A stretch of 64,000 nucleotides of DNA. It comes from Octopus sinensis. Lineage: Eukaryota. The translations under genes were made by a program, and so were the position numbers. Under the pieces are notes generated by a model. That model ran no database searches, was not told where the DNA came from, and was given only the letters and a program-made list of their open reading frames with translations. Shown in pieces: positions 38,754 through 39,099 of this stretch (positions within the stretch are counted from its first letter, which is position 1; every line of letters begins with the position of its first letter). The DNA lies in assembly GCF_006345805.1 (NCBI RefSeq), contig NC_043010.1, positions 44,206,001 through 44,270,000 on the forward strand, in the 5' to 3' direction.

Positions 38754-39035
38754 GCTCTTAATCACTACGCCATATGCACACAGGCATATGGAGTAGTGGT
38801 TAAGAGCGCAGGCTACTAACCCCAAGATTCCGAGTTCGATTCCAGACAGTGACCTGAATAATAATAATAATAACATTGCAAAATACCTTAGGAATGAGAA
38901 CCCAGGTTTGAAATTTCCCCAAGACACCTGACGAAGGCTGGAGGGTATATCAGCCGAAACGTGTTAACAACAAACAAGATGAGGACAAATGTAAATAATG
39001 TACATAATTCCTCATCTCTTAAATATAGAACTGTA
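38754..39035 (+). mobile_element. Non-autonomous element: inverted tRNA-like head + (TAA)n + hammerhead
   Basis: A-box-like TGGAGTAGTGG, anticodon-loop-like CTACTAA and B-box GAGTTCGATTCC at 38784-38845. A 24-bp inverted copy of the head lies at 38754-38777 and the hammerhead at 38923-38965. Confidence 0.65.
38923..38965 (+). ncRNA. Hammerhead motif lacking the NUH triplet, inside a tRNA-headed element
   Basis: GACAC CUGACGA A GGCUG-gagggua uau-CAGCC GAAA C GUGUU. Helix I is GACAC/GUGUU and helix II is a perfect 5 bp. Only one nucleotide separates GAAA from helix I. Confidence 0.6.
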
Positions 39036-39099
39036 TATAAATTTTTAGTGAAAAACATTCATTGATTACTTCATGCTCTTGCTTGATGAGGCTTGAGTC

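Follow-up and report, generated by a model that had tools for sequence, protein, structure and literature searches.

The segment at positions 38782-39035 of the window, the 64,000-nt stretch of Octopus sinensis DNA (contig NC_043010.1, read on the forward strand) that was analysed, is almost certainly a solo pLTR of a Poseidon-type Penelope element. This terminal repeat opens with a tRNA-like head bearing a predicted Pol III promoter and continues, through a trinucleotide tract, into the start of the element's own open reading frame, which reads in frame across a minimal hammerhead. A preliminary description of the locus had treated the same segment as a non-autonomous chimera of tRNA-like heads and a ribozyme; it is no separate chimera, since the coding element's own pLTR comprises the entire unit from the head onward. 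The best overall model, held with moderate confidence and resting on sequence analysis, is that Pol III transcription from the head, combined with an RT start in the first pLTR, would generate the many SINE-like copies of this family.

Positions within the repeat are numbered E1-E268, equivalent to 38782-39035 of the window, after a 268-nt unit taken from the alignment of the 29 top copies. The features of the locus are as follows.

38754-38779, minus strand: short inverted arm, a reverse copy of pLTR positions 1-26 and a by-product of insertion
38780-38781, plus strand: palindrome centre AC, the head's two natural upstream bases and putative transcription start region
38782-38856, plus strand: tRNA-like pLTR segment E1-75, a predicted Pol III type-2 promoter
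38857-38874, plus strand: (AAT)n/(AAC)n tract, frequently longer elsewhere in the family and a second cluster point for 5' ends
38894-39035, plus strand: start of the Penelope ORF (ATG at 38894-38896); in the family this part spans 52 codons, across the hammerhead and tail
38905-38916, plus strand: B-box-like string, which is coding, holds a 6-nt palindrome and forms no second promoter
38923-38965, plus strand: minimal type I hammerhead, with the architecture described in the accessible part of PMC4209133
38923-38927 and 38961-38965, plus strand: helix I; hammerhead core at 38928-38934; bulged A at 38935
38936-38940 and 38951-38955, plus strand: helix II; GAAAC at 38956-38960; triplet deleted here
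38977-39017, plus strand: stem-loop with a 9-bp outer stem and an A-rich loop that holds the first putative RT start
About 38999-39008 (E232-241), plus strand: first putative RT start site
39009-39035, plus strand: one-sided Penelope 'tail', ending at the second putative RT start, E268 (compare PMC11167929, in excerpt)

All of the anatomy first described is indeed present. The inverted copy of the head (arms 38754-38777 and 38784-38807) is complementary at 22 of 24 positions across 6 intervening nucleotides, and AC or GT lies at the centre of most head-to-head joins in the family. The A box (38789-38799, with one substitution in this copy) and the B box (38832-38843) begin at E8 and E51, the canonical tRNA spacing from 38782; the tract that follows reads (AAT)5-AAC; and the hammerhead at 38923-38965 has a perfect 5-bp helix II and lacks its cleavage triplet, the three bases after GAAAC being gone. 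The second B-box-like string is also there, lacking its closing CC, and corresponds to codons 4-8 of the Penelope frame. The resemblance of the head to genomic tRNAs (score 59, where the best of 200 shuffles reached 47.5) does not single out tRNA-Thr-AGT, first named as the closest by eye: in a comparison set limited to 7 isotypes (41 distinct sequences of genomic tRNAs), Thr-AGT (55.5) scored below Arg-TCT (59), Cys (58) and Ala (56), and a Thr origin is inseparable from the other three by score. The head has no tRNA fold; ARAGORN reported no tRNA at the head in the window and none in the family majority at relaxed score, and Rfam (gathering and E-value thresholds) returned nothing relevant on the window and left the hammerhead unscored. 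As a separate observation, about seven tRNA-Cys genes and variants are clustered within 3 kb at one other locus (L167). The copy at 38782-39035 is dead. Its ORF start carries deletions of 3 nt and 11 nt, and no flanking direct repeat or target-site duplication was found at 38754-39035. A T5 run lies at 39042-39046, 7 nt past the end of the copy, and a Pol III transcript from this copy would therefore halt at once.

The coding partner was identified from the flanks of copies, after a search with the GIY-YIG family had returned 30 loci of other elements without similarity beyond (AAT)n. In 4 of the first 55 distinct copies (L016, L030, L068 and L074), the sequence immediately 5' of the head codes for Penelope protein, with the ORF stop about 30 nt before the head in ORF-linked copies; the 268-nt unit that encodes the first 52 codons of the RT/GIY-YIG frame recurs after it. 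At L098, the 3' end of the unit runs in frame into an ORF whose start at E113 places the hammerhead inside the reading frame, and the same hammerhead-coded peptide stands at the N-terminus of an outside protein, P0001 (53% identical). Both ends of the ORF bear a pLTR at L098 and L283, and each of the 30 loci found by searching with an outside protein of 41% identity is a member of the same family. The repeating unit is about 2.65 kb long (2,648 nt in the majority sequence), holds an 835-codon frame, and is ordered as tRNA-like head, (AAT)n, ATG, in-frame hammerhead, stem-loop and tail, RT, GIY-YIG, stop and head again. Copies diverge by 6-8% from this majority, and none of those examined was an intact natural copy. 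Natural fragments matched RVT_1 with E-values of 3e-6 and 8e-7, falling narrowly short of the curated cut-off, and the family's own fragments gave no match to Pfam GIY-YIG; a 547-aa frame at L262 is 42% identical over its length to P0013, a protein with Pfam RVT_1 and GIY-YIG domains. The L262 translation has the CxC motif and is without the CX2-5CxxC finger between RT and EN (criterion as given in the available part of PMC8557442), and these motifs fit the EN+ Penelope/Poseidon clade. The dependence on Penelope machinery originally proposed is correct. Head and hammerhead also travel together rather than by chance nesting: each of 30 successive matches to the head along a single contig continued into the remainder of the tRNA-like segment, usually with (AAT)n after it and never with a different recurring tail. 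Contigs from four sequencing runs cover the ORF end and pLTR; among the pieces listed, the ORF-head junction is bridged in X16 and X19, which bear the codes of different organisms. Summed read depth rises across the head in all four but, being no measure of copy number, carries no weight here. A metagenome scan based on P0001 confirmed 0 of 73 candidates, a scan of viral contigs 0 of 24, and a PDB search gave no match.

The family is large, with more than 12,000 arms; a single tail-region 19-mer has 12,175 exact matches in the genome, and the first genome search scored 40 among 4,703 candidates, at 84-91% identity. Copies are dispersed as single or inverted arms, with no tandem arrays, and the 29 top copies align as a sharp-ended unit. 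Their 3' ends are sharp and non-repetitive, unlike a LINE-type tail. In an unbiased set of ends, comprising the first 100 exact matches of the tail 19-mer on contig C1, 58 fell at E222-245, 41 at E258-280 and one beyond. Forty-one of the 44 two-armed insertions pair one 3' end of each class (P = 1.6e-9 against one half) and carry a one-sided tail of roughly 27-36 nt, while the other three pair two short ends and none pairs two long ones. Such a distribution would be expected if the element's RT/endonuclease cut AT-rich DNA and cDNA began inside the RNA at E232-241 and E268, one site per side of the break. The copies run from the head to 50-86 nt beyond the hammerhead cut site, and the suggestion that ribozyme processing defines their ends is contradicted by a cut site (E182) that is internal to copies that start at the head.

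Six copies that contain the ORF start (L375, L376, L380, L381, L382 and L396) end at E494-531 joined to a second pLTR piece, which may reflect a further RT start, a jump-acceptor site or query-end bias. Four others (L103, L107, L111 and L113) share a different continuation of several hundred bases beyond E183-232, representing either a chimeric sublineage or the duplication of a genomic segment. Within the pLTR, (AAT)n reaches hundreds of bases in some copies (L213, L222, L075 and L014), and the family therefore seeds microsatellites. Open frames of other retroelements, LINE-like or of another PLE type, lie 1-2 kb from copies at L095, L097, L119, L196 and L239.

The 5' ends are concentrated at the head. 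Exact genome matches rise from 838 just before the head to 5,447 within it. Of the 40 arms that extend to E9, 28 stop at E-8 to E9 (two values were hand-corrected for long (AAT)n), compared with 56% per 100 nt in two short intervals and 16-33% per 100 nt across the remaining ones. The (AAT)n tract is the stopping point of 21 of 70 arms, and other palindromes also gather 5' ends. The 58 heads at unbiased loci divide into 10 linked to the ORF, 20 that meet a mirror head and 28 with some other partner; among these 28, the bases that naturally precede the head fade out from -2 to -6. The 'back-to-back heads' are thus one outcome of Penelope insertion rather than a family feature, and the 20 palindromic heads could arise by annealing alone; longer inverted heads do occur elsewhere in the family, as had been anticipated. 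Copies containing the ORF start were recovered at 30 loci, of which 4 duplicates were set aside to leave 26 distinct copies. Three begin at the head (the full-length L283/L371, L378 and L390), with full-length L283 and the N-terminal copy L378 both starting at E-2 on unrelated flanks. Another three extend 60-282 nt upstream of the head, so templates passing through the head exist, and the remainder are 5'-truncated within E26-E290. In three ORF-start copies, ORF-internal sequence is joined to an arm starting at E-4, E1 or E11, the outcome predicted for an RNA whose end lies at that point. The pattern of ends makes a transcript start site at the head likely.

The hammerhead itself is intact in most of the family, and an intact example adopts the drawn fold with z = -2.9. 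At the triplet positions most arms read GTT, in line with the predicted consensus of GAAAC-GUH-GUGUU. In unbiased loci, 99 of 120 arms have no gap at E176-187; the other 21 have gaps, most often of 3 nt (13 arms), with lengths of 2 nt in 3 arms and 5 nt in 2, and other forms in 3. The loss appears to have arisen repeatedly. Among 61 opposite-strand arm pairs, drawn from all loci including loss-biased sets and with a few pairs sharing one arm, the triplet is lost from neither arm in 34, from one in 22 and from both in 5. The arms thus disagree in 22 of the 27 pairs with a loss while the marker at E151 agrees in 42 of 48, so that triplet loss arises per arm and is not passed down within a subfamily; a subfamily origin is rejected by this discordance and by the occurrence of the loss with both E151 variants. 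A search for 5' ends enriched exactly at the cut was set aside, the 4 of 100 anchors at E181-184 being confounded by an 8-nt palindrome.

A loss of this kind could record ribozyme cleavage. The dimeric hammerhead would cut some templates and RT would cross the cut on a 2-nt GU overlap, such that a cDNA stopping at the predicted cut after GUU and re-priming on the GU of the upstream fragment would lose exactly 3 nt. For the triplet loss alone, polymerase slippage, at reverse transcription or later in DNA, stands at only slightly less than an even chance. The triplet sits in a GT-rich micro-repeat where slippage is possible, the 2-, 3- and 5-nt deletions all fit local direct repeats, and an 11-nt microhomology deletion recurs nearby at E208-218. 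Slippage accounts less well for the dominance of the 3-nt form, the one with the 2-nt overlap, over the 2-nt and 5-nt forms (13:3:2), or for the much rarer loss of the adjacent perfect AAC repeat (4 of 120 arms; gaps at E145-175 number 0). In the available part of the Anolis study, RNA-seq yielded no reads ending at the hammerhead site (PMC11167929).

If the head is a Pol III promoter that is read through the coding sequence, the unit should be free of terminators, and the absence of T4 runs had been predicted before they were counted. The sense strand of the 2,648-nt majority holds none. The count is still zero in a majority rebuilt from 365 alignments (depth 27-258), where no site reaches 10% of copies or more. 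Synonymous shuffling (12,000 shuffles) gives an expectation of 3.63 runs (P = 0.0097, from the largest of three runs that returned 0.0135, 0.0043 and 0.0097), and near-T4 motifs are likewise reduced (4 against 11.2 expected, P = 0.0095), in what is a test of one family and one majority sequence. By comparison, 25 outside relatives, picked from 80 for their nearly open frames, show observed/expected ratios of 1.05 and 1.00 with none reaching P under 0.05, and all 80 together hold 455 T4 runs against 404 expected; A plus B boxes after the ORF were found in 0 of the 80, many of which have short flanks. Runs of A5 are also low in the unit (7 against 12.4 expected, P = 0.018), as is T4 in five LINE-like frames of the same genome (4 against 7.7) and, in total, in 15 other frames (26 against 31.2), so a general avoidance of runs is possible. 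The depletion of T4 lends moderate, indirect support to Pol III transcription. A natural contrast to the tRNA-headed family is offered by a young PLE family of another type in the same analysis (L046, L050 and L054-L060), with near-identical endonuclease matches, frames of up to 781-883 aa and normal T4 content. Its tandem 3' repeats, downstream of the GIY-YIG frame, carry ATTGG and TGACGTC, which we take to resemble CCAAT and CRE boxes, that is, a Pol II-type promoter.

Together, these features are most economically accommodated by a single RNA made from the head. Initiation by Pol III would fall 0-5 nt before the head and, as the unit lacks T4, the polymerase could continue through the ORF into the next pLTR. 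An RT start in the first pLTR would then run off at the 5' end of the RNA after 240-270 nt, giving many short SINE-like copies, and a start in the second pLTR would give ORF-bearing copies. Two cDNAs may join head to head, often via the 12-nt near-palindrome around the start, and a join of this type would have produced the 24-nt inverted head at 38754-38777. The parts of this model differ in strength. Pol III transcription of short RNAs from the head is likely; its extension to the whole coding unit is less probable than its absence. The joint proposition, of a coding element of about 2.9 kb read entirely by Pol III, purged of T4, with one RNA giving both element and SINE-like copies and with copies that record cleavage in vivo, can be advanced only tentatively. 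Pol III RNA has no cap, and translation consequently needs an extra assumption; the protein could stem from Pol II read-through of host genes.

That difficulty is avoided by a division of labour, somewhat unlikely in our estimate, whereby Pol III would make only short RNAs from the head as SINE-like templates and Pol II would provide both protein and long copies. In its favour, short copies exceed those linked to the ORF by about 6 to 1 when counted at the head, and autonomous partners have been argued to need Pol II (PMC10886601, in the part available), but it does not account for 2.4 kb of coding sequence free of T4 or for the full-length copy starting at E-2. Less probable again is an ordinary Penelope with a passenger tRNA or SINE fragment, transcribed by Pol II from its own TATA-less promoter or by host read-through. 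The 5' pile-up would in that case reflect RT stalling or cDNA annealing at the near-palindrome, with its AC/GT centres, and the absence of T4 would reflect chance or run avoidance. Such a reading draws on the 5' ends collected by other palindromes and (AAT)n, on the A5 depletion and low T4 of some other LINE-like frames, on the read-through templates, and on the LINE-type internal promoter of the Drosophila virilis Penelope (PMC2377424, in excerpt). It has more difficulty with the 28 of 58 heads that stop without a mirror partner, their upstream bases fading from -2 to -6, with a stop that falls where the A and B boxes predict a start, and with relatives that show no T4 depletion. Finally, an independent, ribozyme-processed SINE lineage mobilised in trans is suggested by the predominance of 268-nt, head-to-tail SINE-like units, yet it is very improbable and already largely refuted by a head that belongs to the coding element's own pLTR, by markers E64, E78 and E151 common to short and ORF-linked copies (small counts), and by copy ends that are independent of the cut site.

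The closest described systems, compared here with the accessible portions of the cited sources, are Anolis PAc and the Poseidon EN+ PLEs. The octopus element shares with them a single RT frame with a C-terminal GIY-YIG (PMC11167929; PMC8557442), a CxC between the GIY and YIG halves without a linker zinc finger, pLTRs with an inverted 5' arm, and an ORF start overlapping the hammerhead; inverted arms and tails of PLEs are also in print (PMC8557442). As in PAc, a one-sided tail lies between two internal RT starts near a stem-loop, and two-site RT initiation has been shown in vitro for Anolis Poseidon (PMC11167929). The family differs from what is described of these elements in its tRNA-like A/B-box segment within the pLTR, with 5' ends at its +1, and in a unit that lacks T4 and recurrently loses the cleavage triplet. 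The D. virilis pLTR promoter, for its part, is described as resembling the TATA-less internal promoters of LINEs (PMC2377424). The ribozyme is identical in kind to the minimal type I hammerheads of metazoan PLEs, with a bulged base before helix II, G10.1-C11.1, a 5-bp helix I, palindromic 15.2-16.2 and a predicted dimer, and the per-arm deletion at the cut site is new relative to the available account (PMC4209133).

Other families combine some of these parts. Schistosoma Sm-alpha and Sj-alpha likewise place a Pol III promoter (a predicted one in the octopus) ahead of a hammerhead, but they are non-coding, often tandem, and freed as units by cleavage (PMC6765202, in part), whereas here the cut site is internal and the unit serves a coding element as its terminal repeat. 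The TRIMp3 elements Cassandra, Helenus and Ajax carry a small-RNA-derived Pol III promoter inside a terminal repeat, as predicted here, and are described as non-autonomous LTR elements of less than 1.3 kb (PMC10886601, in part); the autonomous PLE anatomy places the octopus family outside TRIMp3, with only the promoter-in-repeat layout common to both. Metazoan non-LTR retrozymes are similar in having short pLTR-related repeats with type I hammerheads that are spread by PLE enzymes (excerpt of bioRxiv 10.64898/2026.07.22.740005), and differ from the octopus family, which forms no tandem arrays, has ends away from the cut site and retains the unit as the parent's pLTR. With regard to SINE2 elements, the tRNA-derived head does stand at the 5' ends of copies, and these copies do not form a distinct non-autonomous lineage. 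The literature searched, mostly non-subscription, contained no PLE with an A/B-box pLTR, +1-fixed ends, T4 absence or triplet loss, and neither a tRNA-type promoter in an autonomous PLE nor a Pol III-read coding retrotransposon; Repbase and Dfam lay outside its scope, and the family may be deposited there. What is new here is the +1 pile-up of 5' ends, the absence of T4, the one-of-each pairing of RT starts and the per-arm loss of the triplet.

The accounts consulted, in their accessible text, assign autonomous retroelements to Pol II and regard a Pol III head as the signature of a non-coding dependent (PMC10886601; PMC5786205). A coding element that had acquired a tRNA promoter and shed its terminators would, if true, break this division, and would provide a direct route to SINE-like families without a separate partner, SINE and partner being combined in one unit; the translation of an RNA that Pol III leaves uncapped would then need explaining. 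The one-of-each pairing of RT starts provides genomic support for the two-site initiation of Anolis Poseidon, and the per-arm deletion at the cut site makes in vivo cleavage by Penelope hammerheads directly testable. For annotation, pLTR copies of this kind are easily filed as tRNA-SINEs.
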